Source: an uncultured archaeon
Lineage (GTDB): Archaea; Micrarchaeota; Micrarchaeia; Anstonellales; Bilamarchaeaceae
Assembly (NCBI GenBank): GCA_963734525.1
Contig: CAVTHI010000008.1
Span: forward strand, 216,450-280,449
Direction: 5' to 3'
Length of the DNA stretch: 64,000 bases
Below are positions 18,200 to 43,445 of this stretch, piece by piece (within the stretch, counting starts at the first letter, position 1; the number at the start of each line of letters is the position of its first letter). The notes under the pieces were generated by a model. It saw only the letters and a list, made by a program, of their open reading frames with translations. It ran no database searches and was not told the DNA's origin. The position numbers were made by a program, and so were the translations under genes.

Positions 18200-18299
18200 G
18201 ATATTGAAAGGGCAGAGAGATAATAAAAAGCTTTAGGCGATTATGGGGCCGGCCCCGCGCGGCGCATTGGCGGCGCGGGTTTTTCGGAATGGGGCATGG

Positions 18300-19046: not shown

Positions 19047-19403
19047 ATGGTAAAAAGGAGCGCTCCGAACGTCCCCGGCTCCGGAAGCGGGAGAGGCCAG
19101 GATGAGGAATCCGCCAGCGGCGGCGGGTTATATTCCGTCTCGGCGATAGACGATATGGAAAGGCAGGCCCTGGACAAGGCGAACAAGGCCATTTCCGCAA
19201 TCGAGAACGCCATCGCGGTCTGGGAGGCGTCGCAGGACAAGCCCGAGGACCTGAAACCCCGCATGATACGGCTCAAGTATTTCTATGACGCGCTCTCGAA
19301 CTGGGAGAAAAAGCTGCTTAAAAGCATGGGAAGGAAGGACCAGGTCGGCGAACGGGTCGAGAGGCTCAAGGAATTCACCGACATCTGCCTGACGTACTCG
19401 TGA
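19047..19403 (+). CDS. 118-codon acidic helical protein, first gene of the giant locus
   Basis: Clean ATG with SD. Sequence ...MERQALDKANKAISAIENAIAVWEASQDKPEDLKPRMIRLKYFYDALSNWEKKLL... Its stop overlaps the next start (GTGA at 19400-19403). Confidence 0.6.
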   Translation: MVKRSAPNVPGSGSGRGQDEESASGGGLYSVSAIDDMERQALDKANKAISAIENAIAVWEASQDKPEDLKPRMIRLKYFYDALSNWEKKLLKSMGRKDQVGERVERLKEFTDICLTYS

Positions 19404-20566
19404 TTGCCATGGGAGGACAATTCGCAGAACGGACCGCGGCACCCCCGCAGGCGGGGATACCGGCCATGCAGATTACGGCGGCGGACAACATACTTCGGGA
19501 GCTCAGCAGCCAGAGCCAGCGCGGGCGCGAGCAGGCGCCGCAAGCCCGCCAGGCTATAGAGGCCGGCGAAGCCACCCTGGTTGCCGCCAGGGGACTGGCC
19601 CAAAGCTTCACCCGCCCGAGGGCAGAAGGAGGCCTCGGCTACCAGCCGCGCCACGGGACTACCGTGGAACAGAGGCGCCAGGAAGAGCTCGCCCGCCTGA
19701 CAACGGCGAGGGAAAGGCTCGTCGAACTGCGCGGGCACACTTTCGGAGACGCAGTCGTAGACCAGAATTTCCGGAGGGTCCTCGACGCCCAGATAGGGGT
19801 AGTCGATGCGGCGCTGGTGCGCGTCCACGGGGGGACGAAGCCGGTCACCACAGATGACGTCGACCATGCGCATAACAGCATGAACCAGGTCCAGGGGAAC
19901 ACCGGCCAGATTGTCGAGGTCGCGACGACGGTCACCGCGGCCATGAGGGCAGGCCTGCCGCCCGAGCTCGCGCGCAACGCGTCCGCGGCCCTGCATTTCC
20001 ACCAGTCCGGCCAGGCGCTGAGGGCGAGGCTGATTCTTCGCGGAGTCAGCGAGACCGCGCGGAGAAGTGACACGTTCCTTTCGCAGGACGGCAGCGGACA
20101 GCTCGACGCGATTACGGCCACGACGACACAGCTCGCGGACACAACGAGAACGATGTCGGACCAGGACCTGGCGAGGGCCGGGCAGGACATCACGAACATC
20201 ATGGGCGGGGCCGATGCGTTAGCGGCCGCCAGGATGGAGGCGGCCAGGCAGGCATTCGACGCGCAGAACCGCACGCTGCGCTCCACGCTCGCTTCCGAAA
20301 CCAATGAAAGGATGAAGGTCCAGCTCAGGGACATCATCGCGGACAACGAAGCGATGCTGGCACGGCTCCAGAGGGGGAGCACGAATCCGCCCGAGCGAGC
20401 AGGAGCTCAGGCTGTTGTCTTCGAGGACGCTGGCCGTCCGCTCCATGTGCGAGGATTTGGCCAGGACGCCGGCCGGGCCTGCGGGAGCCGGCCAGCCGCA
20501 TCTACAGCGCCGCGCTCACGGTGCTCGACACGCCCCCGACCGCGCAGGAGAACGCGGACGCGATAA
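19400..20566 (+). CDS. Giant-locus segment 1: Ala/Arg/Gln/Thr-rich helical protein, probable N-terminus of the mega-ORF
   Basis: GTG 19400 (or ATG 19409) is coupled to the upstream stop. The last ~40-60 codons (…GRACGSRPAASTAPRSRCSTRPRPRRRTRTR) look out of frame. Confidence 0.65.
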   Translation: MIAMGGQFAERTAAPPQAGIPAMQITAADNILRELSSQSQRGREQAPQARQAIEAGEATLVAARGLAQSFTRPRAEGGLGYQPRHGTTVEQRRQEELARLTTARERLVELRGHTFGDAVVDQNFRRVLDAQIGVVDAALVRVHGGTKPVTTDDVDHAHNSMNQVQGNTGQIVEVATTVTAAMRAGLPPELARNASAALHFHQSGQALRARLILRGVSETARRSDTFLSQDGSGQLDAITATTTQLADTTRTMSDQDLARAGQDITNIMGGADALAAARMEAARQAFDAQNRTLRSTLASETNERMKVQLRDIIADNEAMLARLQRGSTNPPERAGAQAVVFEDAGRPLHVRGFGQDAGRACGSRPAASTAPRSRCSTRPRPRRRTRTR

Positions 20567-21807
20567 TGGGGAGGTTCAACACGCTGATGGCGGCAAGCTC
20601 CGCGCTGAGGATGTATCCCGCCACGTCGGGCGCGCTCGGACGGGAGCAGACGCAGAGGAGGAACACGATAACGCGCGAGGCGCAGGCAATCGCCGAAGCG
20701 GAAACTCCGCAGGCGCGCGCCGCGGCCGAGCGCCAGCTGACGACGACGCTTGCGACATACGTGTCGCGCGACATCACCGCGGTCGCAGGGGCGGTGCCCG
20801 GCGAGGCGAGGACCGCGCTCGATGCAATCGCCGCGCCGCTGGCGCAGCCAGGGACTGCGACGACCGCACAGGTCCAGGCCGGCATGCAGGCGCTTGCCGC
20901 GGTCGCCCGGCTCGGCGACGCGATATCGCCGTCGCACCGGATGGACCAGGACACGAGGAACGGCGTAATCGCGATTTACGCCCGGGCGCTCACGGCGCTT
21001 CCCCAGGCCGGGGGCATGGAAGCGTTCAACACGCAGATTGCGCTGGCGGGAAGGTATGCCGAAAGCCCAGCGCAACGGGCCGAGATTGCGCGCGTTTCGG
21101 AAAGGGCCGCTCAGGGCGGCGAGGGGCTCCAGCTCGCGCAGAGATACCTCGAGGCGGACAGGCAGGTGAACACGGTCCGCGAGCAGCGCAGGGGATTGCC
21201 CGCCGGAAGCGAGGCGGCAAGGGCGCTCGACATCATCGTCACGAACCTGGAAACGTACCGGACGAAAATCGCGGCCGGGCAGGACATCGCGACCGAACAG
21301 CAGATAACGGACTGGACCGCGAGAATCAGGCGGGACAAGGATACGGACCCGGCCATCGCTAGGCAGGTCGAACGCAGGAGGGCCGCCATATTGGCCGAGA
21401 ACCCCACGATGGATCCCGCGGCCGCCGAGGCCCAGGCGATATCGTCGATGGGACGCGAGATGGCGAATGCGTCCGAGCAGAGCAGGATAACAACGCTCCT
21501 CGAAGCGGGCGAACAGATGATGCGGGCGCTCCAGACGCCGCACCTGGCCGGCAGCCTCAAGAACGACCTGGGCAGGATTTTCAGGCTCGCCATCGACGCC
21601 ATCTCCCAGGGCAATGCGCAGGACGGGGCCACGTACAGGGACGCGGCCACGGCTTACCTGTCGCTGCGCGGAAGCCGCAACGCGAGGGACCGCGCGGACA
21701 TAATGCAGATTGTCCGCGCGAGCCGAACAAGCCACGCCTGCGGCGGGGCAGGGCAGGTTCACGGACGTGCAAATCCGCTCCCTCCAGGTTTACCGCCAGT
21801 TCGGTGA
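20521..21807 (+). CDS. Giant-locus segment 2 (helical)
   Basis: Only a GTG start. The frame is already open and reads sensibly upstream (…LREPASRIYSAALT|VLDTPPTAQENADAIMGRF). The tail …SHACGGAGQVHGRANPLPPGLPPVR looks out of frame. Confidence 0.65.
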   Translation: MLDTPPTAQENADAIMGRFNTLMAASSALRMYPATSGALGREQTQRRNTITREAQAIAEAETPQARAAAERQLTTTLATYVSRDITAVAGAVPGEARTALDAIAAPLAQPGTATTAQVQAGMQALAAVARLGDAISPSHRMDQDTRNGVIAIYARALTALPQAGGMEAFNTQIALAGRYAESPAQRAEIARVSERAAQGGEGLQLAQRYLEADRQVNTVREQRRGLPAGSEAARALDIIVTNLETYRTKIAAGQDIATEQQITDWTARIRRDKDTDPAIARQVERRRAAILAENPTMDPAAAEAQAISSMGREMANASEQSRITTLLEAGEQMMRALQTPHLAGSLKNDLGRIFRLAIDAISQGNAQDGATYRDAATAYLSLRGSRNARDRADIMQIVRASRTSHACGGAGQVHGRANPLPPGLPPVR

Positions 21808-23341
21808 ATATGAATCCAGGATTACGGACAGGGGGACGTTCAACAACGCGCGCGCATATTTCGATTTGGCGCTCATCGCCGCAAGGGGCAACGACCCGCG
21901 CCAGTTCCAGGCCATCCTCGACATGGCGAACCTTTACGCGGGGATGAGCACGATTCCGGAGAGCTCGATGACGCCCGACCTCCTTCGCCAGCGGAACGAG
22001 GCGAGGAGCTTCGTCACCGCCCAACTCGGGGATTACAGCGCCGACCGCAACATCAGGGGCGGGAAAAGGCTGCTCGACCTAAACAGCGAAGGCAGCCGCA
22101 CATGGCGGCTCGGGAGGGGCGTCGAGCTGAGGCCGATAGCCAGGGCGCTCGTTTCCACTAACGCCCCGGCAACTGCGGAACATCCGCACGAGACGATTGC
22201 AGGCGCGCTCGGCAACGGGAATGCCGCAGCGGGCCTGACCGCGTTCCAGCAGATAGCGGCGCAAACCAACACCCACATGCAGAGCATGGATGCGGTGCAG
22301 TTCGAGCAGAGGGCGCGCACCTTAGAGGGCGGGGACGAGGGCTCGAGGACCAGGACGCGCATGGACAGGCGCTACAGCCGCGAGGGCACCAGGCTCCGCA
22401 ACTCCGCAACAGCGGCCGAGAGGGCGGGCGATGCGGCGCTGGCAAGATACTACCGCGACCAGGCCGAGCTCGTGGACCCGCAGACATTGCGCGGCAATGT
22501 CGCGTCCGCAAGGGACATATACAGGCGCAGCACCGAGGAGAGGGCGCTTGCGACGAGGCTGTCCGCAGACGCGGTCAATGTGGCGACGCCGGATGCCGCC
22601 CGCGAGAGGCAGAGCGCGGAAGCGCTGATAGCCCTGCTACCCGAGGGGCAGAGGGCTGATTTCACAAGAAGGCTCACCGAAGCCGGCGACAATGCCGGAA
22701 GGGTGCGCGCAGTTTATACCGACGTGCTCGTAGCCCAGCTTCCCGAACGCGAAAGGACGCAGTTCACGCAGATGCGCCAGCAAGCCGGCCAGCTCGACCT
22801 CCCCAGGTCGAGGGCGGTGGCCACGCGGATGATAAGCATGCTGCCCGAGGGGATGCGGGCGGGATACACAGAGCGCCTCCGGGCGGCGGGTGAAAACCTC
22901 GAAACGACGCGAGGCATCGTGCAGGAAATCATGCACGTGCAGCTCGTGGGCGGCGAGGCCCAGCTCCACGCGGGGCGGAGCATGGACCTCCGCACGCAGG
23001 CGAATACCGTCCTCGAAGGCACATCGACGCTCGACCGCAGCGTCGGCCTCGATACGAGAAGGGCCGAGAGCGGAAGGCAGGAGCTGGTGGTCGGCATCAG
23101 GACGACGATAGCCATGGCAAGCGGCTATGCGACGGACCTGCTCGGCAACGTGCTCATGGAACCGCAGGGCGAGGGAGCCGCGCAGAGGCAGGTTCCGGTG
23201 AGGGCGCCCCCCGACGCGGTGCAGCTCCAGCGCGAGCAGGCGCGTCTCGCGCTCTCGAGCGGGACGACGGCTCGTCCAGGTCCAGGAGCAGACAAGAGCG
23301 ACGAGGGACCGCGGCCTTGCATCCGCAAGGACACTTGCTGA
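21710..23341 (+). CDS. Giant-locus segment 3 (helical; start of the LP-motif repeats)
   Basis: TTG is the only possible start, 6 nt after in-frame TAA 21701. Contains ALIALLPEGQRADFTRRL, LVAQLPERERTQFTQMR and MISMLPEGMRAGYTERL. Confidence 0.65.
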   Translation: MSARAEQATPAAGQGRFTDVQIRSLQVYRQFGEYESRITDRGTFNNARAYFDLALIAARGNDPRQFQAILDMANLYAGMSTIPESSMTPDLLRQRNEARSFVTAQLGDYSADRNIRGGKRLLDLNSEGSRTWRLGRGVELRPIARALVSTNAPATAEHPHETIAGALGNGNAAAGLTAFQQIAAQTNTHMQSMDAVQFEQRARTLEGGDEGSRTRTRMDRRYSREGTRLRNSATAAERAGDAALARYYRDQAELVDPQTLRGNVASARDIYRRSTEERALATRLSADAVNVATPDAARERQSAEALIALLPEGQRADFTRRLTEAGDNAGRVRAVYTDVLVAQLPERERTQFTQMRQQAGQLDLPRSRAVATRMISMLPEGMRAGYTERLRAAGENLETTRGIVQEIMHVQLVGGEAQLHAGRSMDLRTQANTVLEGTSTLDRSVGLDTRRAESGRQELVVGIRTTIAMASGYATDLLGNVLMEPQGEGAAQRQVPVRAPPDAVQLQREQARLALSSGTTARPGPGADKSDEGPRPCIRKDTC

Positions 23342-24700
23342 GGGACAACAACATCACGCAGGCGACAGCCCTTATAAACCGCATGATAGACCTGCTTCCC
23401 GAGGGCAGGAAGGCGGAGTTCAGGTCGAGGATTGCCGCCGCCAATCAAAGGAATGAAGGCGAATCGGAAAGCGCGTTCCGGCTCAGGCAAAATGGCATCC
23501 TCCAATCAACGTATGCGGAACTGGGCAATCTCACAGGCACGCGGACGACGAACGAGCAGGGCAACTTGATTTATGATACGGTCGGAAATTATGCGGATTA
23601 TCGTGTCGTTTCGGGGATGTTCTGGTCCGAGCGGTTCGATGCCGCAGGCTCTGCGATGAACGGCGCTGCCGCAACCATCGGCATCCAGTCGAATCGCGCC
23701 GGCATGTGGGTCACGAACCGCGTATTCGCGATTCAAAGGGAGGCGGCCGCTGAACGGACAGGCTTCCCTCCGGGGATGAATGCTATTGCTTCTGCGCTGT
23801 TATCGCCAGAAGGATTGGGGCTGGCCGGCGGAAGGACAGTGACCCCCCCGACTGACGCGACGCTCAATGAGATAATAAGCCACCTTCCGGCGGATAAGCG
23901 CGCCGATTACCAGGCGCGGCTTGCCAGGATAAGGGAGGCGGAGGGCCGCGCGGGAGCCGCAAGGCCCGGCACCCCAGATGCCATCACAAGGGACATTTTC
24001 ATGGAGGGCGGAGGCAGGCAGGGCCTCCTCGAATCCCTTGCGAGCGAACGGATTAGGACGCCGGCTGGAAGGGACGTGAACCTGCTCACAACCATCGCCA
24101 GCCGCAGCCCCCTATACTTCGATGCGGAAGGATATGACAGGAGGTTCGTCTCGGCGCAGGCGGCCGTGGACAGGGGCAATGTCGCCGAAGGGAACAGGAT
24201 TCTTCTCGGGCTGACCGGCGGGCGCCAGCGCGACGGGACCGAGGTCGTCGGTGACATCGAAATCGGCCAGGGAATGGAATCGAGCGATATCAGGCGCTTC
24301 ACGCTTAGGGCCTCGGCATGGACCCAGGAGAGGGCCAGGTCCGGCGTCCGCGGGGAATTCATGGAGGGCGCGCCGCCAGGCACGGAAGAGACGCGCGCAA
24401 GGCAGATGAGGGAGGACCGGAATCTGGCAATCGTCCCGGTTCTCGAAGCCCTGGAAGGCAGCATGGGAAGAAGCGTTTCCGAGCTGAATGCGGCGGCGAC
24501 TGCGAACGAGAGGGCGAGGGACGAAATCGGAACGACAAGGACTGTGCTGAGGGTCAACGATTCACTCGTAGCAAACCTCTGGGCCATGCTTCCGAGGGAT
24601 GCCGCCTCCAGGTACGACGCCCGCATTGACGAGATGAACGCGGGGGGGACGTCTCCGACAAGGCGCAATGAAATCGCGCGCGAGCTTTACGCCGAGATGC
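22618..24700 (+). repeat. Six dispersed copies of a helical 'LP' motif (hh..hLPxxxRAx[YF]xxRh) spanning the segment 3/4 junction
   Basis: Copies near 22621, 22727, 22828, 23381, 23868 and 24569. Examples: MIDLLPEGRKAEFRSRI, IISHLPADKRADYQARL, LWAMLPRDAASRYDARI. Confidence 0.6.
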
Positions 24701-27700
24701 GCACGCATCCGGAGGAGTTCCGGCAGGCGAGGGAAGACCTGCTAACTCACAGCGGCACATATTTCACCCCATACCGGGCCCAGCTCGAGGCGGATGGAGA
24801 GACTACGTATGCCGAAGGCAGGCACCAGCAGCGCAGCGTCGGCTGGACGTATGCGAGGCTGCAGTTAACGTCGATGCAGGACGATTTGAGGATGGGTGAC
24901 CAGGCCCAGACCTACAGGGAGGGGAGAAGCGCCCAGACACAGCACGCAAGGGACGCTCTCGACCGGGCGAAAGGAAGGCCGGGCAGGATGTACCTCATCT
25001 CGGACGCGCACAGGGAACACGCGGCGAGGAGGGCCGAGGCCGCGCTTGCCATGCTCCATGAGGACAACGACTACCGCGCGCAGGACATACTCCGCAGCAA
25101 CGAGACATTGACCGCGCCAGTATACGAGTTCCACGGCCCGAGCCGCGACTGGAATTATGCGCGGGTGGGGACGGATGTCAACATCTACAGCGATAGGAGC
25201 GGCAGCGGAAGGCGCATCGGAGGCCGCCAGATAAACCCGATTGACGAGATGGACACGCTCAACCGCGCCGAGAACATGGAGCTCACGAGCTATACCGACA
25301 GCGACCTGTTCTATGATTCCAGGGCGCGCGTCCGGCCGCAATTTGAAACGATAGGCCGGAACCAGACGGACCTGCAGCTTGGGCTCCTCGGGTTCCGCAG
25401 GGTCCCTCTTCTCAACGATCCTGACGGATACACCCACCGCATCGTATCATGGACGCCTGCATCCGAAGCGGAGTACGCGAGGGTTAATGACGCCTACACG
25501 CAGTTCATGCGCCTTCGCGGGCAGATGCAGTCATCGGTTTTCCAGCACGATTCGCCATGGGGCGACGACCCGCAACTCCGGTTCCTTGAGCGGACCGCAG
25601 AGCGCACTTCGAACGCGGCTTTGTCGGTATACGAACTCCAGCCATACCGAATGGATGAAAGGCCCACCGGCACGAACGCTGAAAGGCTGGCGGCATCCCA
25701 AAGCAGGCTGAGGGACAGCGGATTGTTCGTCCAGGAGGGGAACCAATATGTCGACAGGGATTTTGCGACAAGGGATGCGCTATCTAGCATGACGAACTAC
25801 CGCAGCGGCTACAACGTCGTCTGCGGAGTCGGCGAGTTCGCGGTCGCAACCGCAGGCGTCGTCTTCGCGCCGGTCACCGGAGGGGCGTCCCTCGCACTCA
25901 CGGTCGGCGTCGGCGCAATGGGCGTGCACCGCGGATTAGTCATGAGGGAGCAGGCCGGCGAGTGGACCGGCATGGCGACGTTCACTACGGTCATGGGCGG
26001 AATCGGGATGGTCCTGCCTGTTGCCGGCGAACTCGCAGGAGGGGGCAGGCTGCTTGCAGGCGGCGCTGAGCTGGCAAGCGAACTCTCTGCAGGAAGCAGG
26101 ATTGGAACCGCGGCGACGGAAACCGCAGTCGCATTGACAAGGAGCCAGAGGGCCCTCCAGTGGGCTGTGGGCGTCGGCAACGAGGCGAACTGGGCGCAGA
26201 GATATGTCGGGCGCACTGTGCTCGGCGCGTATGAATTGAACCTGGCACAGCGCGGCGTGCACGTGATGGGAACCGGCATGATGGCCGGCGGCTTCGCTCA
26301 GTTCGGCTACCAGCTCCCGCAGATGATAGAGGGCGTGCGCCGTGGCGACATGGCCTGGTTCGAGGCGGCCTTCGGCGGCTTCCAGGCGATCGTCCAGCCC
26401 ATGGCGCAGGCGGGCTTCGTGCAGTTCCGCGTGGGGCAGGCGGCAAGGGGAGGCGGCATTCCAGCTTACAGGCCCGCGTGGCAGCAGGGAGTCGAGGCGG
26501 TTTTCCTCGGCCACCCGCTGACGCTGGGGCAGGAGCACGCGCAGTCTCTTGCTTATCACAACGCGCGGATAGAATTCAATGCCCTCCCGCAGACGGTGAG
26601 GGAATCTTACGTTTCATTCAGGGACAGCACGGGAATACGGCTGCCGCCGGACGTCGAGGTTCGCGTCCTGCGGGAGTACCGCGCGGCGAACGAGCAGGGG
26701 ACCGCGAGGAACTTCCAGGAATTCGCGTCAGGTTCCAGGGATGTGCAGGTCGCGCGGCTCGAAGCGGTCCGCGACGCGATTGTCGAGGGGAGGGTGAGGC
26801 TGTCCGAACTGCCCCGCGACCAGCAGGAATATATCCGGACGAGGCAGGCCGGCGGCAGCGAAGCCGCCGCGCTGACCGCCCGCGACCTGGCCATCGCAGA
26901 ATCCAGGGCGCCTGCGCCAAGGACGCCTGAGACGGTCGCGGAGCAGAGCAGGGCGACCCTTGAGCGGCTCGACCGCGCCGCGGAGATGCGCGACCGGAGG
27001 GACGCCGCGGCCGCCGCAGTCCAGCTGAGGCAGGAGAGGACGGATTTGAGCGGCTCGTTCGATGCGGCTTTCACCGGGAGGAGCTCGGACGGGACGACGA
27101 CCACTTACACGCTCGGCAGGGGCGAATCCGCAATCACGTTCGGGGAGCAGCACGTCTCGCTCGCGACCGACCTCGCATTCAACGCGCAGAGGATTGTGCG
27201 GAGGCCGGAAGGCCAGACGATGGAGCGCGCGGCCGCTGAAGCGCGGACGAGAATCCGCGCCCAGCTTGAGCCGGAGGTCCGCGCGAACAGGATGAGCGTG
27301 GCTGACGCCGAGCGGATTACCGGCGAAAGGATGAGCCGCGTCGAGCAGATGGCCCGCGACCCGGAGTTCGTCCGCGCCACGCCGCGCGACGGGGCGGCGA
27401 ACAGGGGCGAACAGCTGCGCCTCGGGCTCGAGAGCGCGGGATTCCTGCCAGAAATCGCTCCAGGCCGGATGTCATCAGGGCGAGGAACTCGGTCGAAGTC
27501 CTCAGGATTCTTAACAGCAGGGAGCTCACGCCGAACGACCTTGAGGTTTTCGCTTTCAGGAGGCAGCAGCAGTCCGAGGAAGCGGAGACGAGCGCGCTGG
27601 GCATGGAGACTCGCGCCGCAAGGTTGCGCGAGAGCAACCCCCAATCGCGCGAGGCTACAGCGCTCGACGCGAGCGCGCAGAGGCTCCGCGCGGAAGCGGC

Positions 27701-35528: not shown

Positions 35529-38500
35529 GACGAGGCCAGGCCGCGCTCCCCCGGCGCAGACATCGATGACGCCTGAGGAGGTCGTCAGGGTTCATCTTAC
35601 CGCAGATACGGGCGGAAGGGCGGATGCTGCAGCCGCCCTGATGCGCATGCCCCCGCGCGACCGTGCACGGACCGTCGAATTGCTCCGTGAAAGGGCGCGC
35701 CCGCTTGAGGAACGCGCAGGAGCGATGGAGGCCGAGGCGAGGAGGCTTGAGGCACAGACCGCGCCGCAGGAAACGAACATCGTCCAGAGGCAGCAGGGCG
35801 CCGAGGCCGAAGCTACAAGGCTCTTCGAAGAGGGTCGCCAGCTCAGCACCCAGGCGCAGGCGGCCGAGGCGCGCGGGGATGCTCCCGAAGCCGCCCGGTT
35901 ACGGACCGAGCAGAACCGCATTGAAACGCAGGCTTACGAGAGGGATGCCGAAGGCAGGCGCCTCGCCATCGAGCTTAGCCGCGTCCGGGAGCCTGCCAAC
36001 AACCTGCGAAACGACGCAGCCGGACTGAGGACCCAGGCGCAATACTGGAACGAGCATGCGATGTTCTACCGCGAGCTGGGAAGCCTCAGCGGCGATGCGG
36101 GCACGAACATTTCCACGATGTTCATGATTCCGAGGGAAGAGCTTGCATCGATATACGCCCGTGCGCCCACATTATCCGAAGCGAGGCAGGCGATTTATGA
36201 CCGCCTCGGAATACGGCTCGGGGACCTTCCCCCGCTCGAAGTCAGGAGCGACGCGTATAAGAGCTTCAACTCGCTTGCGGACGACCCGTACATAGCGGGC
36301 ATGATGCTCACCGGGGACCTTTTCCGCAACATCGAGCAGATGGTGAGGCCGGACATGCTCGGCCTCCAGCCGGGCGACCGCGTGGTCGTGAGGGGCATAA
36401 GCTTCCAGAACGGCCTGGTCGGCGCATACCGCATCAGGCTCGAAGTCGTGGACAGCACGGGAAACCCGAGGACATTCACGGACCGGGGCGGGAATTCCAG
36501 GGACAGCATGACCGTCTTCGCGAAGAGGCAGGACCTGCGTCCCGATGCGGTCGGCTCGGAAGGAGGCTCGCTCACCGGGGCGCCATCGCCGCAGATTCGC
36601 GTGACCGGGCCGAACGGAAACCTTTCATACGTATCGCCCGAAGGGCATACAATCAACTACGGCATCATGCGCGACATACATGATTTCAGCGGGGAAGTGG
36701 CCGCGGGCGGGCACCGCCTGCAGGTCACGGTCGACGCCGCGGAAGACCTGTACAGCCTCGTGTTCAGGCAGGAGGGTGCGCGCGATGCTGGAAGGCAGCA
36801 ATTGTTCGCCGAACTGCGGGACAACCCGGACCAGTTCATCGAGGCGCTCGGCTATGCGCAGACCGGATTCGCCGCGGCCGGGTTCTATGACAGGCACGAG
36901 GCGAACGTCTGGGCGATGTGGCTCCGGATAGGTAACCAGCCGCCCGCGGAAGCCGCGCGCATGGCGCAAAGCCTCCGCGGCCAGGGCTACCGCGTCCGGG
37001 ACAACGGTGACGGCTCGTTCAGCTTCCTGCGCTTCGGCGCGATTGATTCGGATACGTTCGGTTCCTACCGCGCGACGGTCCGCGAGGACGACAGCATCTC
37101 GCTGCGCCCGATGGCCAACCAGTTGACGACGGACATGCACCGCGTTTTCGTTCATTTGACATATGAGATGAATACCGCGGAAATGACATTGGCGGCCTCG
37201 CAAGGAAGAAGGCCGCGCCTCCTCACAGTCGAGCAGGTCATTGAAAGGTCGTTCGGCGCGAACATGGACGGGCCGTGGATACGGGGCATGCGCAGATGGG
37301 CCACCGAGTTCAGCCCGACCACGGAGCAGGGCAGGAGATTCAATGATTCGATGAGGGGCCTGCTGAGCAACTACCACGGCCAGCGCAGCGGCATGGGATT
37401 CGCGATGGAAGGGGCCCAGCTCGGGAGGTTCGAGAGCGACGGCTACGTGCCGGTCCCCTCGGCCCTCAACGGCTCGCCGGTCACAATCGTGGACGGCATG
37501 GACGGAAGGGCGAGCTTCCTCGCTACCGGCAGGATTGCCACGAACCCGACAATCGGGGAATCCGCAAACAGGCGCATCATCGCGGCTATACCCGAAGGGC
37601 AGGACAGGTTCCTTATCAGGACTGATGATTTGCACAGGACGCAGCGGACTGCGCTGCGCGGCGCCCTCGGCTCTGCGGCAACAGAGTTCAGGACCGCAGG
37701 CGTCGGGGGGAGAACCTATCTCGTCATAAGCGACCCGGCGGCGATACCGCAGCAATACCTTGACAGGACGATATCGGTCAACAGGACCGGCGATGTCCTC
37801 TACTCGTACAACTATGGCTCCTTCATGACAATGTTCCCGGAGGGCAGGAGAATGTTTATGCTCCGCGTCGACAACCTGCCCCGGTCGGATGCCCGGGCGG
37901 CCGGCAGGATTCGCGGGGCACAGCCGCTTGAGCTCGGGATAACAGGCGAAAGAAGATATGTGATCGTAGAGAATCCGGACAGCATCCCGCAGGCCCTCAG
38001 GGACCGTGCCGTCGAAGTCGTGAGGCACGAAAACCGCCTGATGGGAGCCGAAGGGATGGCAACCAACATCGGGATACTGCATACGAGGACCATCGGCGCG
38101 GTCAGGATGTTCGACCACGTGATGGGCATGGGCGACGCCGGCTGGAGGAGCCTCTGGCAGGGCGTCCGCGACGGCTTGATGACTGCAGAGGGGAACGAGC
38201 GCGCCGCCGGCGGGCAGGACTTCCTCATGAGGAGGGTTCCCCAGCCGAATGTGCGGCAGGCGCTCCCGCCGGAGTATGGCGGCCCGGCAAGGACCGCGCC
38301 GCTTCCGCCTGATGCGAACCCGCCGGGCGGCGCGCCGCCCGTGGCGCCTCCGCCAGTTCCACCGCAGGCGGCACCTTCGCGGGGACCGGACGGAACGATA
38401 AGGGGAGTCACTCCGCCAGCGGATGCGCAGGCGCAAAGGCCGCCGTCCCAGCCGCCACCGCCGCCGGTTCCGCGGCAGTCTGCACCGCCTGAAGCGGTGC

Positions 38501-39903
38501 CGAGCGATGCGAGGCCTACCGCGGTGCGCCCGCCGGAACCGCTGCCATCGGATGCAAGGCAGACGCAGAGACGCGGGCCTGCAGAGCCGATTCCATCGCA
38601 AAGGAGGCCGGCAGAACAGGTGCCACCGATTCCTTCTGAAGCAAGGCCGACAACACGCCAGGCTCCGCCGCCCCCGGCACCAGACGTGACGCTAAGGCGG
38701 GAAGGGCCGGTTCCGCCGCAGGCCATTCCCACTGACGCGAGGCCCACGCAAAGAATGGAATTGGGCGGGGCAGCGGCATATCCAGGAATGGCAGCGCAGG
38801 GCCGGGGATTCGGGCATAACGGTCTGCCGGGACGCATTTATGCTCCTGAAGAAGTGATGAAGGCGGGAGGCATCGCGAATGCCGCAGCCGGACGGACGGT
38901 GGAGGGCATCAGCGCCGCGGACGGCCGCGTCGCAGCGGAGCTCGCATTGCAGACGCCGTTCGTGCAGGCAGGGGCGGATGCACGGATGCGGATGGCGCTC
39001 ATAGCGATGGACAACGCCTCGATTGTCCGCGGCGAAAGCTCGATTCCCGTAAGGCAAAGGAATCCGGTGCAGGGCTCGATGAACGCCGAGCTTTCCGCAG
39101 CAGTCACCCAGACGGACGCCGCCGGCATGAGATACCGGGATGTCAGCGCATTTTACGACCGCGAAACAGGGGCGATAACCGCAATCGGGGCAAGGGGGCA
39201 GGGAGAGCGGGTCACAATCAGGGTCAACATGGACGACGGGCGCATCTTCAGCGTCAGCGGCACGGGCGAGGTGCATCCGTCGGTCGCAGCGCTTAGGGGA
39301 CATCAGATAATCGAGCCCCCGGCGCCCATAAGCGGAGGGCCGAGGGGAGGCCCGAGCGGGGGCGGCCCGGGCAGCGTCCGTGAAACGGCCGCTTTGGCGC
39401 AACGGGTGATGGGGGCGGAGCCCGCCGCGATTGCCAGCCTTGCATCGGCTTCGCAGGAAACGCGCCTCGCCGTCGGATTCGAGATTGCGGGGAGGTTGGA
39501 ACTCACGGATGCGAGGCATCTTGCCGGATTCGCCCGCGACCTGGTGATGTATGACCTTCATCGGTCCGGGCGGCGCCCGATAACGAACCCTGCGGATTTG
39601 GCAAGGGTCACGGAAAGCGCGAGGCGCATCGAGCTTCTGCCGGAACCAATCAGGAGGGCGGTCAGGGCCGTAAGCTCGGATGCCGGTTTCGGGCTGAATT
39701 CATTGCAGGATGATACAAGATTCAACAGGTTCGTCGGTAACCGGAGGACCGGCGGCGCATTGATAGAGACCGCGCGCGGGGCCATCATGCGCGCCATGCC
39801 GGCCGGGGACGATGTCCAATTGAGGATGGCTGTTGGCGCCGAAGAGATGGGAATGCCCCGTGCGCCGGGACAGGAGGGAAGGCCGGGCGGGGCAGGGGCA
39901 TGA
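35425..39903 (+). CDS. Giant-locus segment 6 (1492 codons): coiled coil, second PI3K/PI4K-like module, tandem ~80-aa duplication, Pro-rich array, C-terminal domain
   Basis: GTG start. The frame opens at 35383 and reads …GPLEEAV|RPVMRAIPREAG. It ends in a clean ATGA overlap with the next gene (39900-39903). Confidence 0.75.
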   Translation: MRPVMRAIPREAGQDARAWAAATRANPTGDIQIPRTRPGRAPPAQTSMTPEEVVRVHLTADTGGRADAAAALMRMPPRDRARTVELLRERARPLEERAGAMEAEARRLEAQTAPQETNIVQRQQGAEAEATRLFEEGRQLSTQAQAAEARGDAPEAARLRTEQNRIETQAYERDAEGRRLAIELSRVREPANNLRNDAAGLRTQAQYWNEHAMFYRELGSLSGDAGTNISTMFMIPREELASIYARAPTLSEARQAIYDRLGIRLGDLPPLEVRSDAYKSFNSLADDPYIAGMMLTGDLFRNIEQMVRPDMLGLQPGDRVVVRGISFQNGLVGAYRIRLEVVDSTGNPRTFTDRGGNSRDSMTVFAKRQDLRPDAVGSEGGSLTGAPSPQIRVTGPNGNLSYVSPEGHTINYGIMRDIHDFSGEVAAGGHRLQVTVDAAEDLYSLVFRQEGARDAGRQQLFAELRDNPDQFIEALGYAQTGFAAAGFYDRHEANVWAMWLRIGNQPPAEAARMAQSLRGQGYRVRDNGDGSFSFLRFGAIDSDTFGSYRATVREDDSISLRPMANQLTTDMHRVFVHLTYEMNTAEMTLAASQGRRPRLLTVEQVIERSFGANMDGPWIRGMRRWATEFSPTTEQGRRFNDSMRGLLSNYHGQRSGMGFAMEGAQLGRFESDGYVPVPSALNGSPVTIVDGMDGRASFLATGRIATNPTIGESANRRIIAAIPEGQDRFLIRTDDLHRTQRTALRGALGSAATEFRTAGVGGRTYLVISDPAAIPQQYLDRTISVNRTGDVLYSYNYGSFMTMFPEGRRMFMLRVDNLPRSDARAAGRIRGAQPLELGITGERRYVIVENPDSIPQALRDRAVEVVRHENRLMGAEGMATNIGILHTRTIGAVRMFDHVMGMGDAGWRSLWQGVRDGLMTAEGNERAAGGQDFLMRRVPQPNVRQALPPEYGGPARTAPLPPDANPPGGAPPVAPPPVPPQAAPSRGPDGTIRGVTPPADAQAQRPPSQPPPPPVPRQSAPPEAVPSDARPTAVRPPEPLPSDARQTQRRGPAEPIPSQRRPAEQVPPIPSEARPTTRQAPPPPAPDVTLRREGPVPPQAIPTDARPTQRMELGGAAAYPGMAAQGRGFGHNGLPGRIYAPEEVMKAGGIANAAAGRTVEGISAADGRVAAELALQTPFVQAGADARMRMALIAMDNASIVRGESSIPVRQRNPVQGSMNAELSAAVTQTDAAGMRYRDVSAFYDRETGAITAIGARGQGERVTIRVNMDDGRIFSVSGTGEVHPSVAALRGHQIIEPPAPISGGPRGGPSGGGPGSVRETAALAQRVMGAEPAAIASLASASQETRLAVGFEIAGRLELTDARHLAGFARDLVMYDLHRSGRRPITNPADLARVTESARRIELLPEPIRRAVRAVSSDAGFGLNSLQDDTRFNRFVGNRRTGGALIETARGAIMRAMPAGDDVQLRMAVGAEEMGMPRAPGQEGRPGGAGA
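37591..38040 (+). repeat. Tandem duplication of a ~75-80-aa module inside segment 6
   Basis: PEGQDRFLIRTDDLHRTQRTALRGALGSAATEFRTAGVGGRTYLVISDPAAIPQQYLDRTISV versus PEGRRMFMLRVDNLPRSDARAAGRIRGAQPLELGITGERRYVIVENPDSIPQALRDRAVEV. Confidence 0.7.
38491..38750 (+). repeat. Five copies of [AEP]x[VLI]P(S/T)(D/E/Q)(A/R)R(P/Q)(T/A) within a wider Pro-rich tract (38230-38760)
   Basis: EAVPSDARPT, EPLPSDARQT, EPIPSQRRPA, PPIPSEARPT, QAIPTDARPT. Confidence 0.8.
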
Positions 39904-41360
39904 GGGGCGCGGATGCGCCAAGGGCCATGGATGAGACTGCAGCCTCGCCTGATTCGGCCCGCGTCCAGCCGCCGCTGAGGCCGCCGTCACTCGGCGAAAT
40001 GCCGAATTCGCGCAGGTCCCCCTCGCCCGCCAGGCAAGCGCAGAGGCCCGCCGAGCAGGCCGAATCGGGTTTCACGCTCAGCCGCGCAATCGCAGGGTCA
40101 AGGCCCGAGGTTGCATTCGCGCAGCTGCATCCTGCGGAAGTTCCGGGCCGGCCGGGATATGTCATGCGCAACGGTGAAGAGGTTGCGGCATACCATGTCA
40201 TCCAGCATACGGAGAACGTAGCCCGCGCCGCATATGACCTGACGCTGGCGAGGGCAAGGGCCGGCGACTTCACCGCACAGGACAGGACGCTTTTCGGTTC
40301 CCCGGAAGGGAAGGCGCAGTTCATGTCGCAGGTCGGCATACTCCATGACGCAGACCCGAGGCGTGACGCGGGAGCGCCCGCCCGCGTCCCGGCGACTCTC
40401 GAGTGGATGAGGTCCCAGGAGGGCAGGACGTTCATGAGGGAGAGGTTCGGCTGGGACGAATCCACGCCCCAAGGCAGGTTGAGGATTGCCATGGCCGGGG
40501 CGATAATCCAGCGCACCGAATTCCCATTCGATTCCAAGACAAGGCCGGTCAGGACATGGCCGAATGACCCCGAGGCCGCCAGGACTGCGATAGGCGGCCA
40601 CTACGGGACGGAATCGCCTACCGCGAGGTACACGAACATGGTGAGGGAAATCTCGGGGCTGTCCCCGGACGCCCGCGATTTCGTGCTGCGCGAAGCGGCG
40701 TTCTTCTCGGAATATGCCGACAAGTCGAGCTGGTACTTCGAGAGGCCGGACGTCGCTTTGCTGACAGTCACGGGCCTTACCAACGAAGTCCGGGCGGTCC
40801 TTCCGCCGGGAGTCAATGCCCCGGACTTCCTTCCGACCACGCGCGGCCAGTTCCTTGATTCGATAGGAAGGCCCGCGAGCTTCGGCGAGGATGCGCGCAT
40901 TGCGAGGGAGCTGGGGGCGCCTGAGCCGAGGATACCCGGCAGGGACGAAATGATCGGGATGCTGGGCGCGGGCCAGAGGCGGAACTGGGCATCCACCAAC
41001 GAGATGTTCGGGCTGGTTGAGATTTACCACAGGAGATGGGACGTGGCCGCGCCCACGAATCCCGAAGAGCTCGCGCGTTTCAATTCATTGCTGAGCGCCG
41101 ACCCGGCGACAAGAGAGGCGCAGGTTGCCATGCTCCGGGGATTGCGCTCGGAGAACCTGGACACGGCGCAGGCCGCGAGGGGGATAGCGCAGGGCTTTGA
41201 CAGAGAGGGATGCCGGTGCGGTCGAACGGTCGTCGCCTGCGCCCCGCCAGCTCTCGCCAGCGGAACAGGCGAACGCGGAATTGATGCGGGCATCATTGAT
41301 TCCGGATACGTTCCAGAACGAGATAATCGCGAGGATGCCGGAAATCCTGAGGTTGAATGA
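39900..41360 (+). CDS. HD-domain-like protein with disordered Pro/Arg-rich N-terminus; probably continues into 41197-41964 after a frameshift near ~41200
   Basis: ATG 39900 overlaps the upstream stop (ATGA). AYHVIQHTENVARAAYDL … VGILHDADPRRD fits the H…HD…D metal-site pattern. The tail …EGCRCGRTVVACAPPALASGTGERG looks out of frame. Confidence 0.6.
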   Translation: MRGADAPRAMDETAASPDSARVQPPLRPPSLGEMPNSRRSPSPARQAQRPAEQAESGFTLSRAIAGSRPEVAFAQLHPAEVPGRPGYVMRNGEEVAAYHVIQHTENVARAAYDLTLARARAGDFTAQDRTLFGSPEGKAQFMSQVGILHDADPRRDAGAPARVPATLEWMRSQEGRTFMRERFGWDESTPQGRLRIAMAGAIIQRTEFPFDSKTRPVRTWPNDPEAARTAIGGHYGTESPTARYTNMVREISGLSPDARDFVLREAAFFSEYADKSSWYFERPDVALLTVTGLTNEVRAVLPPGVNAPDFLPTTRGQFLDSIGRPASFGEDARIARELGAPEPRIPGRDEMIGMLGAGQRRNWASTNEMFGLVEIYHRRWDVAAPTNPEELARFNSLLSADPATREAQVAMLRGLRSENLDTAQAARGIAQGFDREGCRCGRTVVACAPPALASGTGERGIDAGIIDSGYVPERDNREDAGNPEVE

Positions 41361-41964
41361 TGCGCAGTACACCACGGCATTGGAGAGGCTTGAAATCCTG
41401 ACAGGCCTCGGCCAGACCCCCGCACTGGCAGTCCTGAAGCTGGTGACGGACAGGCCGGACGTGCTCACCATGCCGGATGCGGGGTTCAACCTGCTTTTGG
41501 CCAGGATAGAGCAGCGTGCCGATATCATCAACAGGCTGACCGGCGGCGACCAGAGAATCATGTCGGCGAGGGGGCTCAACTATTTCGACGACAGCGGCGT
41601 CCTGTTCCTGGACATAGCCGAGATAACGAGGAGGGGCAACCTGCCGCTTCCGAACCCGCCCCCCGCCCCGGTTCCAACCGCAAGGGAGCCGCCTCAGGGT
41701 ACGCTCAACCGGAGGTTCAGCACCTTGGATGTGAAGAGGATTTTCGAGCACATGGGATACGTGTTCGTCGGAAGGACCGGGGAGAACATCATGAGGCACC
41801 CCGACGGGCGGACTGCGTCCATTCCTGAAGCGCGCGAAGTGGCGGGCGGCACGCTAAACAGCGTCCTGCAGAACAACGGGATCACCAGGAGGCAGTTCTT
41901 CGAGGCGGCAAGGGACGCCGGGGTCATCACGAGGCAGGTCGCGCGGCAGGTCTTGGGAGAGTGA
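41197..41964 (+). CDS. Helical region ending in a HicA/YcfA-like domain (about 41715-41964)
   Basis: TTG start only. C-terminus LDVKRIFEHMGYVFVGRTGENIMRHPDGRTASIPEAREVAGGTLNSVLQNNGITRRQFFEAARD follows the HicA pattern, but GEN replaces the usual GSH. Confidence 0.6.
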   Translation: MTERDAGAVERSSPAPRQLSPAEQANAELMRASLIPDTFQNEIIARMPEILRLNDAQYTTALERLEILTGLGQTPALAVLKLVTDRPDVLTMPDAGFNLLLARIEQRADIINRLTGGDQRIMSARGLNYFDDSGVLFLDIAEITRRGNLPLPNPPPAPVPTAREPPQGTLNRRFSTLDVKRIFEHMGYVFVGRTGENIMRHPDGRTASIPEAREVAGGTLNSVLQNNGITRRQFFEAARDAGVITRQVARQVLGE

Positions 41965-41980
41965 AACGGGAGTGACGCTT

Positions 41981-42232
41981 ATGGAAGACGACAAGGAGAT
42001 AGTGAAGGTCGAGGGATTCAACGTGAAGGTCTGGAAGGAGGATGGGACGTTCATCGCCGAGGTCCAGGAACTCCCCGGATGCGTGAACGAAGGCAAGTCC
42101 AAGGAGGAGGTCCTCGGCAAGATACAAAAAACGATTGTCGCTTATGTATCATCGATGGCTGGCGACCTCCCGAAAAAACCCCCGGCCAAGCCGGGCGGCA
42201 AAGGCGGGCCGAAGAAGAGGGTATTGAACTGA
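41981..42232 (+). CDS. hicB: HicB-like (UPF0150 fold) small protein with basic tail; candidate antitoxin/immunity
   Basis: ATG 41981 lies 16 nt after the upstream stop, with GGGAG SD at 41968-41972. KVEGFNVKVWKEDGTFIAEVQELPGCVNEGKSKEEVLGKIQKTIVAYV fits the HicB N-terminal domain. No RHH/HTH domain, only a KKPPAKPGGKGGPKKR tail. Confidence 0.7.
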   Translation: MEDDKEIVKVEGFNVKVWKEDGTFIAEVQELPGCVNEGKSKEEVLGKIQKTIVAYVSSMAGDLPKKPPAKPGGKGGPKKRVLN

Positions 42233-42275: not shown

Positions 42276-42884
42276 TCATTTTTTCTCTGCGGGCGGGACA
42301 TTGGCGCGCCCGATTGTAGGCGCTTCCGGAACGGCCGGTCCGGCGAACCGCAGGGAGCCGTCGTATATCGCAACGAGCCCGCCCTTCCTGGCATCCTCGC
42401 TCGACGCGCCGGCCTCTGCCGACCTTATCGCGCTCTTGACCGCGCCCCAGTCCAGCTCCGGGGGGGTGTTGTGGTAGCAGACAATCCGCTGGCGAACTAT
42501 TATCCTGCGCTCCGGGTCGGCAAGGACGAAATAGACCGTCCCCGCACGCTCGTGAAGGCCGAGCCCGTATGACATGCCGGAAACGTCCGGCGACGCCCCC
42601 ATCGCAAGGGACATGAGGATGTTGCTGATGGAGAAATTCGCGTCGGATGAATAGTATTGCGACGAGCCGCCCGTGCTTTCGTAGAGCATGGCAGGCATGG
42701 AGAGCTTGCTTTCCAGCTCCGAGTCCCAGCCACGTGCGAGCCCTTTCAGCCTTTTGATGACGTCGGCCGATGATACGCGCCTGTAATTATCCATGATAGC
42801 CACCGGGGATACGGCCTTTGCGAACGGCCTTTTTGCAGATTCCGCGCCGGTTTTCGCTGGACCAGATGATGAGGCTCTTGCCAT
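42276..42884 (-). CDS. Hypothetical protein, 'Y family' paralog
   Basis: The track ORF starts at 43031. I prefer ATG 42884 (MARASSSGPAKTG…), which leaves a 23-nt gap after the upstream gene. The C-terminal domain aligns with 16476-17075. Confidence 0.6.
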   Translation of the reverse strand: MARASSSGPAKTGAESAKRPFAKAVSPVAIMDNYRRVSSADVIKRLKGLARGWDSELESKLSMPAMLYESTGGSSQYYSSDANFSISNILMSLAMGASPDVSGMSYGLGLHERAGTVYFVLADPERRIIVRQRIVCYHNTPPELDWGAVKSAIRSAEAGASSEDARKGGLVAIYDGSLRFAGPAVPEAPTIGRANVPPAEKK

Positions 42885-42907
42885 GATGTGATTTGCCAGG
42901 AAATGTT

Positions 42908-43273: not shown

Positions 43274-43445
43274 TACGTCTGATAGCTCCTTCGGGGCGGA
43301 CGCCAGTCCCGCCCAGCATGTCCAGCACCTCGGCTTTCGCCACCTTGAAAGAATCTTCGGCCATAATGCCGCCGCCGCGGAATTTGCCCGCCTTGGCCTT
43401 GCGTGCGCGGGTTATCGGGATGACGACGCCTGCTTTTTCGCTCAT
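43260..43445 (-). CDS. Small hypothetical protein (61 aa), possibly leaderless
   Basis: MSEKAGVVIPITRARKAKAGKFRGGGIMAEDSFKVAKAEVLDML… A TTAATTTTAAA box lies ~30 nt upstream of the ATG. First gene of the minus-strand trio. Confidence 0.35.
   Translation of the reverse strand: MSEKAGVVIPITRARKAKAGKFRGGGIMAEDSFKVAKAEVLDMLGGTGVRPEGAIRRIGHA

Follow-up and report, generated by a model that had tools for sequence, protein, structure and literature searches.

In polymorphic toxin and effector systems (Rhs, CDI and MAFB-type; Zhang, Aravind), a very long protein with a conserved body ends in a C-terminal module that, together with a small downstream gene, differs between close relatives, and modules are shuffled across the family. 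MARTX and large clostridial toxins carry several enzyme modules on one multi-thousand-residue polypeptide, along with a Gly-rich hydrophobic region with the potential for membrane insertion. Among episymbionts and predators with reduced genomes, the SPEARE proteins of Nanohaloarchaeota and the archaeovorins of Omnitrophota are multi-domain proteins of 5,000+ amino acids (aa), often fragmented by assembly and thought to mediate host interaction. SPEARE proteins harbor protease, adhesion and restriction-endonuclease domains. The effectors of bacteria include kinases whose fold is PI3K/PI4K-like or atypical, such as LepB, MavQ and LegA5 of Legionella. The SPEARE proteins were reportedly described by Hamm et al. 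in 2019. Giant nanohaloarchaeal proteins are on record (PMC10266531), as are the archaeovorins, with their glycosyl hydrolase, peptidase and similar domains (bioRxiv 10.1101/2023.11.21.568195). Here we describe a giant gene on a 64,000-nucleotide (nt) stretch of DNA from an uncultured archaeon (Micrarchaeota; Micrarchaeia; Anstonellales; Bilamarchaeaceae; assembly GCA_963734525.1, contig CAVTHI010000008.1, forward-strand positions 216,450 to 280,449), the whole of which is referred to as the window. Positions 19409-41964 of the window are one gene of ~7,516 codons, split by nine single-base breaks (Table 1).

Judged by analogy of layout, the closest functional parallel to the locus would be a polymorphic effector system, with a looser one in the MARTX-type toxins, and the locus fails membership for both. 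As in the former, a very long protein with a conserved body has a C-terminal module and a small downstream gene that differ between close relatives, and its modules are shuffled across a family. It differs from them on several points: neither a trafficking or secretion domain nor repeats of the Rhs/YD or filamentous haemagglutinin kind are recognised here, the giant protein appears to consist mostly of conserved kinase-type enzymes and not of a delivery stalk, the variable end is without the HicA catalytic His, and the organism is an archaeon. With MARTX and large clostridial toxins, a likeness drawn in the initial annotation of this DNA, it shares the string of putative enzyme modules and the Gly-rich hydrophobic region, but RtxA repeats, a cysteine-protease domain, CROP repeats and a glucosyltransferase are all missing from the Pfam results, as are genes for type I secretion anywhere in the window, and there is no sequence or fold match. 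SPEARE membership was considered and rejected, the serine protease, adhesion and restriction-endonuclease domains not being found in Pfam scans; in the same scans the glycosyl hydrolase and peptidase domains of the archaeovorins were not found in the giant protein. What the locus has in common with these two groups is the context of lifestyle and not the domains.

The unity of the gene is most directly visible in three related loci where it is intact. The first, L001, is a contig of "Candidatus Micrarchaeota archaeon isolate MAG195" found by a scan with one genome per species; its relative is 57% identical and forms one open reading frame (ORF), open at the start of the locus and ending at 14713 (4,901+ aa), which aligns with aa 1315-6806 of the repaired window protein with no frame change. 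The full MAG195 gene is annotated with 6,147 aa (P0004, MEW6035941.1), at 27-56% identity to the window protein. The second, L002, is a 92%-identical JGI metagenome contig, with 88-93% DNA identity along window positions 25416-45793, and harbors a single ORF of 5,069+ aa from the hydrophobic module through the HicA-like end, so that both loci present single ORFs over the distal 5,000 codons. In the L002 alignment the isolated, uncompensated 1-nt insertions or deletions (indels) within the gene fall exactly at junctions 27459, 35412 and 39894. The third, L003, is a Logan assembly found by an exhaustive HMMER scan, in which the ortholog P0003 (7,279 aa) is called as one gene and is syntenic, with neighbours matching those of the window on both sides. 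Residues 1-4051 of P0003 align with residues 4-4035 of the repaired window protein in one high-scoring segment pair (65.7% identity over 4,072 columns, blastp), followed by two further blocks at 68-71% identity; against the window DNA (tblastn) P0003 follows the sequence through every frame change, and it is collinear from residue 1 over junctions 1-6. The initial annotation had called for a search of archaeal metagenome-assembled genomes (MAGs) for syntenic loci; the relatives found here include this syntenic ortholog.

The single mega-gene broken by artificial shifts that had been proposed from the letters alone is therefore borne out by the three intact loci. Its length is ~7,516 codons and not ~6,800: with seven apparent insertions and two deletions, (22,556 - 3 - 7 + 2)/3 = 7,516. 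The upstream boundary near 19400 is real, and the start is probably the ATG at 19409, as in P0003. The downstream one had been placed at 39900-39903, where an ATGA motif does occur, but this apparent stop and overlap is due to frame break 8, and L002 reads straight through it. It follows that the HD-like and HicA-like parts, previously taken as a gene of their own, belong to the giant protein as its C-terminal modules.

Frame analysis of the window agrees with the homologs. Eight + strand ORFs, overlapping end to end, tile 19400-41964 as first described. One strong coding frame is present everywhere along the locus (third-position GC, 300-nt windows), and it jumps near ~20400, 21650, 23200, 27400, 35400, 39900 and 41100, in all cases well before the upstream stop. 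A Viterbi path on codon usage sets the changes at 20383, 20472, 21721, 23268, 23335, 27454, 35403, 39888 and 41200, every one of them upstream of the stop of the preceding ORF. All five junction windows named earlier contain real frame changes; the Arg/Ser/Pro-rich out-of-frame tails of the upstream ORFs are visible in the translations, and the frame translations are open and sensible ahead of the nominal downstream starts. Two of these junctions, ~20390-20520 and ~23280-23320, had been read as single shifts, but each consists of two, with a third-frame stretch of 70-90 nt between them. The LP-motif repeats do run across the 23317 junction, with a similarity between its two sides of E 0.002. 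The locus is richer in GC (63-68%) than its flanks (56-62%) and is strongly skewed toward A over T.

The protein is predicted to contain three kinase-fold modules with intact catalytic residues, which are putative kinases. For the protein-kinase-fold module, described before as similar to eukaryotic protein kinases, the assignment holds at the level of fold. Its AlphaFold2 (AF2) model, built on a 20-sequence alignment, has a pLDDT of 92.7 and a pTM of 0.88, and Foldseek against the PDB gave 299 matches at E<=1e-3; the 50 listed are all protein kinases at probability 1.00, and the best TM-score among the matches listed (0.49) is to the archaeal Rio1 of A. fulgidus. A sequence profile of the module finds kinase N-lobes in the PDB (A-Raf, E 0.004; StkP, E 0.02); in the Pfam scan the module stays below cutoff for Pkinase and RIO1 (RIO1 E 0.23, 11.5 bits vs 22). 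Conserved residues are K68 and D185, both nearly invariant, and the invariant E97 and D211, which make up the VAIK Lys, alpha-C Glu, catalytic-loop Asp and DAG Asp of protein kinases.

The other two, K1 and K2, had been called PI3K/PI4K-like, and AF2 fold, Foldseek matches and invariant DRxxxN and IDxD motifs all support this. The K1 model (21-sequence alignment) has a pLDDT of 94.8 and a pTM of 0.90; its top 21 Foldseek matches are VPS34 (PIK3C3), ATM and PI3K-delta, with DNA-PK also among the best (E 3e-4 and up, probability 0.8-0.97), and after the PI3K/PIKK group come macrolide and aminoglycoside phosphotransferases and protein kinases. D185, R186, N190 and D211 show no variation across the 21 sequences, and K35 hardly any. 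None of the 21 matches PF00454 (PI3_PI4_kinase) or any other Pfam family, the third K copy of MAG195 reaches PF00454 at E 0.23 only, and K1 and K2 profiles find no match among PDB sequences. On the models, the K module would thus have a kinase-like fold with a PI3K-type catalytic loop and not be a member of PF00454. K2 is recovered by an iterated hidden Markov model search seeded with K1 (E 3.5e-54), while direct BLAST between the two is weak (E 0.003), and it is 69-93% identical to its orthologs. Since their catalytic residues are invariant or nearly so, the K modules look catalytically competent. The two similar supermodules seen by the initial annotation reduce to this duplicated K module with the surrounding coiled-coil and Pro-rich linkers. 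The fold nearest to PI3K/PIKK catalytic domains, the two motifs and the setting of a host-lipid-dependent symbiont liken the module to Legionella-type effector kinases, from which it differs in having no detectable sequence homology, with no PI3_PI4_kinase match in any of the 21 members.

Concerning the remaining modules, the N-terminal helical region matches no Pfam family, has no signal peptide and is common to P0003, P0004, P0009 and P0010; its LP repeat is the only repeat detected in a tiled self-comparison of the protein. Kyte-Doolittle values place the only strongly hydrophobic stretches of the 7,510-aa protein at aa 2126-2168 and 2177-2199, within the hydrophobic module, which recurs in 18 family members at aa ~1,800-2,900. 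The GG module recurs as a unit in P0003, P0005, P0008, P0029, P0064 and P0095. The GGDEF-like fold assigned to it earlier remains below threshold: Pfam GGDEF (PF00990) gives E 0.086 in the window (13.1 bits vs a cutoff of 23.8), and although it is the sole family matching more than one GG homolog, it does so in three of seven, all below cutoff (best E 6e-4). The sequence SGDEV takes the place of GGDEF, and the GG-module profile has no match in the PDB. Similarly, the HD-like call comes down to a weak PDE6 motif match. H40, H44, H90, D91 and D215 are invariant (H...H...HD...D), four of five weak PDB matches of the profile are PDE6 catalytic domains (E 0.25-1.4), and there is no Pfam match. Homologous blocks lie internally in P0014, P0021, P0062 and P0005, and L002 is without window positions 39985-41234, the HD-like block being an insertion relative to it. 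A phmmer search of the two largest segments against the PDB gave no match.

The C-terminus resembles a HicAB pair in that a HicA-fold domain is followed, 14 nt after the stop, by a HicB/UPF0150-like gene in the usual hicA-hicB order, but here the HicA domain takes up the final ~60 aa of a chain of 7,516 aa. Its match to HicA_toxin (PF07927) scores 26.5 bits vs a cutoff of 27; against PDB 1WHZ (E 0.002) GGH aligns with GEN and PFH with PEA, that is, Asn stands where the GSH motif has its catalytic His, and the second His is missing as well. In HicA, the GSH-motif His is needed for toxicity. With this His replaced by Asn, the nuclease-like toxin end proposed at first is doubtful. The small gene closing the operon finds weak support as HicB-like: its UPF0150-like Pfam match (E 8e-4) is below cutoff, its PDB matches are TTHA1013 (E 0.22) and TTHA1756 (E 1.6), and it is conserved in L002. 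At the same position L003 has an unrelated 130-aa ORF instead. The ends of the giant proteins themselves differ among close relatives: some finish with HD plus HicA-like parts, others with just the HicA-like part, with a third kinase module or with ~500 aa of unrelated sequence; this variation over a conserved body (window, L002, L003, MAG195) is as the initial annotation's comparison with polymorphic toxins would have it.

On the grounds of sequence similarity, the giant gene is a well-supported member of an undescribed and unnamed Micrarchaeota family of shuffled-module proteins, defined here by P0003-P0095. The HMMER scan gave 89 relatives, 42 of them at E<1e-30, most of 3,000-7,700 aa and many of 4,500-7,700 aa. 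The named homologs all come from Micrarchaeota/Micrarchaeia, in keeping with the archaeal system first proposed, which makes the source of the window a DPANN archaeon of this group, and each is labelled "hypothetical protein"; no paper on the family was found in a literature search. Iterated searches within the 89-protein set yield 84 copies of the K module in 57 proteins, often two or three per protein, and the protein-kinase-fold module in 51; 18 proteins carry the hydrophobic module, ~9 the 611-aa GG module and 5 the HD-like one. Using T for the hydrophobic, G for the GG, P for the protein-kinase-fold, K for the PI3K-like and H for the HD-like module, the order is T-G-P-K-K-H in the window protein, G-P-H-K-K in P0005, T-K-K-P in P0009 and P-G-K-K-K in P0008. 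An Omnitrophota protein, P0063 (7,727 aa, "glycoside hydrolase family 15 protein"), has only the protein-kinase-fold module in common with the Micrarchaeota family.

Two giants lie close together in several genomes. A second giant gene is found a few kb from the first at L003:1-5812 (3,003+ aa), L005:27626-30210 (5,879 aa), L006:1-1406 (3,980 aa) and in MAG195 (P0011, 6,652 aa), and on the 47-kb MAG195 contig two giant genes occupy ~38 kb. The flanks of the window encode archaeal housekeeping proteins (S3Ae, S15, NAC, Lon, ProRS); the downstream neighbours RTC, NAC, S3Ae, S15 and Ham1 are conserved in L003, L004 and L006, and the upstream ones, ProRS, DUF350 and DHH, in L005. Directly upstream of the giant gene lies a small helical partner gene, matching no Pfam family, whose counterpart in L003 is separately called (115 aa, 87% identical). 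Homologs of ~106-124 aa, also helical, stand directly upstream of giants in L003, L005 (two) and L006, and this ~110-aa partner should count as part of the system. The possibility of a recent horizontal island was rejected, the locus being syntenic in relatives and its raised GC explained by replacement of Lys by Arg (K-to-R). A scan of viral contigs with the K-module profile gave no relatives, and hence no sign of a virus or mobile-element origin.

This replacement is pronounced. Of the 7,510 residues of the giant protein 25 are Lys (0.3%) and one is Cys, with Arg at 12.2%; the pooled flanking ORFs have 7.5% Lys, 6.1% Arg and 1.1% Cys. P0003, P0004, P0005, P0008, P0010 and P0012 are equally Lys-poor, and P0009, P0011, P0014, P0016, P0021, P0029 and P0095 have 5-8% Lys; the tabulated family members are all nearly Cys-free. 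As P0004 (0.3% Lys) and P0011 (6.6%) share one MAG195 contig, the bias is protein-specific. Lys occupies invariant or near-invariant alignment columns at K68, K35, K85, K365, K423 and K216.

Our leading reading of function, tentatively held, is that the protein could be a membrane-inserted, host-directed multi-kinase effector. It is suggested by the shuffled modules, the variable end with its changing partner gene, the several paralogs per reduced genome and the loss of Lys and Cys, which together would be typical of proteins for conflict or host interaction and not of housekeeping signalling. The protein would be anchored in, or inserted into, a membrane via its central hydrophobic module. 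Kinases need ATP and therefore act in a cytoplasm, in this case most plausibly that of the host, at the contact between symbiont and host. The exchangeable C-terminal module and the downstream gene may behave like the toxin-immunity end of polymorphic effector systems, and the near-total avoidance of Lys and Cys would fit a protein that passes unfolded into a foreign cytoplasm and survives there. An Arg-over-Lys bias in toxin A chains has been read as escape from ubiquitin-dependent degradation (PMC4030972), and Micrarchaeota depend on host lipids (PMC8975820). A possible route is given by cytoplasm-bridging nanotubes between host and symbiont, "wide enough for … unfolded protein transport", which have been reported in a DPANN co-culture (PMC11329633). 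Several points weigh against this proposal. No module reaches a curated Pfam cutoff (ORFs and 700-aa tiles), and the Foldseek TM-scores of the PI3K-like module are low (0.25-0.3). Translations, Pfam scans and the called neighbours yield no secretion domain and, as the initial annotation had already observed, no signal peptide or secretion genes. The HicA-like domain is without its catalytic His and may not be a toxin, in MAG195 the giant gene is not followed by a small gene on its strand, Lys content is not low in half of the family, and the kinases could equally act inside the symbiont.

The last point leads to the explanation ranked second, which we regard as rather unlikely: the giant protein would be intact and act only within the symbiont, with no delivery, as a signalling protein or scaffold tethered to a membrane, for instance where symbiont and host touch. 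Its kinases, and its possible cyclase and phosphodiesterase modules, would then control the Micrarchaeota cell that makes it. It would account readily for the missing signal peptide and secretion machinery, the cytoplasm of the symbiont itself would supply the ATP, and the central membrane module, the signalling-type folds and the vertical inheritance at a fixed chromosomal position beside ribosomal-protein genes are all in line with it. However, it leaves unexplained the protein-specific avoidance of Lys and Cys, the shuffled modules, the variable C-terminus with its changing downstream gene and the several giant paralogs in a small genome.

A more specific form of the host-directed reading can be framed, to which we give little credence. 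The giants might be lysine- and cysteine-free multi-kinase effectors threaded unfolded into the host via the bridges or nanotubes that form between DPANN cells and their hosts, where they would rewire host lipids or proteins. The symbiont of the nanotube-forming co-culture is presumably itself a member of the Micrarchaeota. In such a scheme the kinases of both types, PI3K-like and Rio-like, would act in the host archaeon, perhaps together with cyclase and phosphodiesterase modules, and the central Gly-rich module would anchor the protein in a membrane. K-to-R replacement would shield it from lysine-directed tagging (ubiquitin-like/SAMP) and proteasomal removal in the host, an archaeal counterpart of the Arg-over-Lys bias of toxin A chains that exploit endoplasmic-reticulum-associated degradation, and the Lys-rich paralogs of the same genomes would be the versions staying at home.

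Judged from the assembled sequence, the frame breaks are very probably sequencing or assembly errors and not decay, because flanking genes are also frameshifted, in-frame stops are absent and constraint is not relaxed. The nitroreductase-family gene at 10542-11052 (+) is split near 10690, reading MEALEAIYTRKSVRKF...QPWQFVVITRKE in frame 2 and then ...YAECTAKAPLAILVCGDKK... in frame 1. The PmbA/TldD metallopeptidase gene at 56270-57498 (-) has at least three frame changes within ~400 nt; the match to its Pfam C-terminal domain covers profile positions 135-219 only, and family-typical sequence continues in the other two frames. In the - strand gene 42911-43455 the frame change at 43311 coincides exactly with an extra G relative to L002 (CCC[G]CCC). 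The background of frameshifts assumed by the initial annotation is thus real, at roughly 1 per 6-8 kb and not 1 per 4-5 kb. A second contig from the same sources (ENA and NCBI), L004, presents abutting same-strand fragments upstream of P0005 (L004:1-6008, ORFs of 1,567+, 122, 271, 114 and 823 aa running into the 6,174-aa gene). Its giant gene is probably longer than annotated, and fragmentation on this second contig points to a property of the assembly.

Less comfortable for an origin in errors are the density and the placement of the breaks, 9 in 22.6 kb of gene vs 5-7 in 41 kb of flanks (2-3 times the flank density, Poisson P 0.002-0.016) and outside long homopolymers. Both speak for the view that the breaks are real and the gene a recently inactivated pseudogene of this strain, in the ongoing decay of a reduced symbiont genome, as does the breakage of other genes in the window, expected under decay; we nevertheless hold this to be improbable. 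Lineage-specific single-nucleotide codon changes, assigned with L003 as outgroup, number 200 synonymous and 32 non-synonymous in the window vs 180 and 46 in the intact L002; constraint on the window copy is therefore not relaxed, and it is under strong purifying selection. The repaired frame contains no nonsense codon over ~7,500 codons, each piece of the PmbA/TldD gene is still family-typical despite three breaks in ~400 nt, and the same fragmentation recurs upstream of P0005 on the second contig.

The evidence at the individual sites is as follows. Across breaks 1 and 2 the P0003 sequence SQQELRIHSARTLAVRSMSEELARTPAA-LQDQTSMVF aligns first with frame 0 of the window and next with frame 1, and the stretch 20383-20472 is the third frame on the Viterbi path. 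At break 3 P0003 has ADIMQICRAAEEASPQAGAGRF against ADIMQIVRA|AEQATPAAGQGRF in the window, and over breaks 4 and 5 its QEQARSSLATGMRLVALQEQIRDTRNRGLASARAQIRDNNIEQ matches window frames 2, 0 and 1 successively. Break 6 is an isolated 1-nt gap within a nucleotide alignment of 89-93% identity, around which L002 and P0003 are single-frame (...LPEIA(S/A)RPDVI...). L001, L002 and P0003 are all single-frame around break 7 (...YAQR.LRGPLE...), and across break 8 the L002 sequence ...GGAMGMRGGDAPRAMAEMPSDSARVQPP... is in frame with the upstream part. Break 9 is based on frame translations and GAGAGGGATGCC context, the HD-module homolog P0014 supporting frame 0 up to ...AARGIAQGF and L002 frame 1 from ...APRQLSPAEQ. 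That the eight ORFs are separate, translationally coupled genes, as in the public record with its distinct proteins P0001 (486 aa) and P0002 (1,445 aa), the only entries that exact look-ups of the window ORFs returned, and as some available ATG, GTG or TTG start for each would permit, can be set aside for practical purposes in view of the one ORF over all junctions in three related loci, the coding frame signal shifting ahead of the upstream stops and the homolog alignments continuing through the out-of-frame overlaps. Programmed frameshifting was likewise rejected, the nine sites being of mixed sign and absent from relatives. The breaks themselves are most likely an artefact without biological interest.

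Table 1. Coordinates of the giant gene, its modules, frame breaks, constituent ORFs and adjacent small genes in the window.
Feature	Position	Strand	Basis or remark
Giant gene	19409..41964	+	~7,516 codons after repair of nine +/-1 breaks
N-terminal helical region, ~2,100 aa	19409..25700	+	LP(E/A)G..(R/K)A.(F/Y) repeats
Hydrophobic Gly-rich putative membrane module	25708..26760	+	strongest segments 25816-26037
GG module, 611 aa	28464..30296	+	possible GGDEF-like palm domain at start
Protein-kinase-fold module	30504..31271	+	Gly loop, VAIK Lys, alpha-C Glu, GDFQ, DAG
Pro-rich linker 1 (PREPSQR repeats)	31614..31826	+	translation; poorly conserved in L001
K1, PI3K/PIKK-like kinase-fold module	32634..33476	+	AF2 model, Foldseek
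Pro-rich linker 2 (RRGPPPLP x4)	33759..34361	+	translation; L002 indel, not conserved in L001
K2, second PI3K/PIKK-like copy	36349..37269	+	DRHEAN ... IDSD
Pro-rich linker 3	38254..38751	+	translation; indels vs L002
HD/PDE (phosphodiesterase)-like module	40077..41207	+	absent from L002; internal in other giants
HicA-fold C-terminal domain	41728..41883	+	Pfam HicA_toxin E 7e-6
Partner gene, small helical, 118 aa	19047..19403	+	directly upstream of giant gene; ORF list
HicB-like small gene, 83 aa	41981..42232	+	14 nt downstream of giant gene's stop
Breaks 1 and 2	20383..20478	+	frame 2->0 near 20383-20392; 0->1 near 20463-20478
Break 3	21716..21728	+	frame 1->2
Breaks 4 and 5	23262..23338	+	frame 2->0 near 23264; 0->1 near 23335
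Break 6	27459	+	window 1 nt short vs L002 (GCATCC vs GCTCC)
Break 7	35412	+	one extra G in window (GGGCCC[G]CTC)
Break 8	39894..39903	+	G-rich linker; window 1 nt short at 39894 vs L002
Break 9	41200..41208	+	frame 0->1; between HD-like module and HicA-like end
ORF 1 of eight	19400-20566	+	ORF list
ORF 2 of eight	20521-21807	+	ORF list
ORF 3 of eight	21710-23341	+	ORF list
ORF 4 of eight	23317-28182	+	ORF list
ORF 5 of eight	27603-35528	+	ORF list
ORF 6 of eight	35425-39903	+	ORF list
ORF 7 of eight	39900-41360	+	ORF list
ORF 8 of eight	41197-41964	+	ORF list

Some features of the surrounding DNA are recorded here in their own right. On either side of the giant gene, at 16476-18878 (-) and 42279-43455 (-), lies an array of small genes on the opposite strand, 150-260 aa long and matching no Pfam family; the arrays are similar in L003, L005 and L006, and some upstream and downstream members are paralogs at 23-41% identity. 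By synteny, 42279-43064 (-) corresponds to a 264-aa ankyrin-repeat protein called in L003, in whose copy the repeats are read; ankyrin repeats are uncommon in archaea. The 127-nt intergenic segment 43616-43742, located upstream of an RtcA-like gene, shares 87% identity with MAG195, far above its surroundings. It contains no tRNA, nor does it match Rfam at a threshold as loose as E<=1; Rfam and tRNA scans of the window found nothing. Finally, the 1.2-kb region 15316-16469 (+), whose only ORF (347 aa) scores low and in which the frame changes near 16222, may also be broken or non-coding.

Single-base assembly errors can hide giant genes, and the locus stands as a practical warning in this respect. 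To our knowledge, the ways in which DPANN archaea manipulate their hosts are largely obscure, and we know of no effector proteins defined for Micrarchaeota; the giant gene is, from its domain content and composition, a good lead. The family is conserved across many Micrarchaeota MAGs, and its kinase modules look catalytically intact and of a type absent from domain databases. If the usual genome size of ~1 Mb is assumed, one to several such genes could fill 2-5% of the genome. The protein-specific loss of nearly all Lys and Cys is a strong and unexplained selective signal, which suggests exposure to a foreign cytoplasm.

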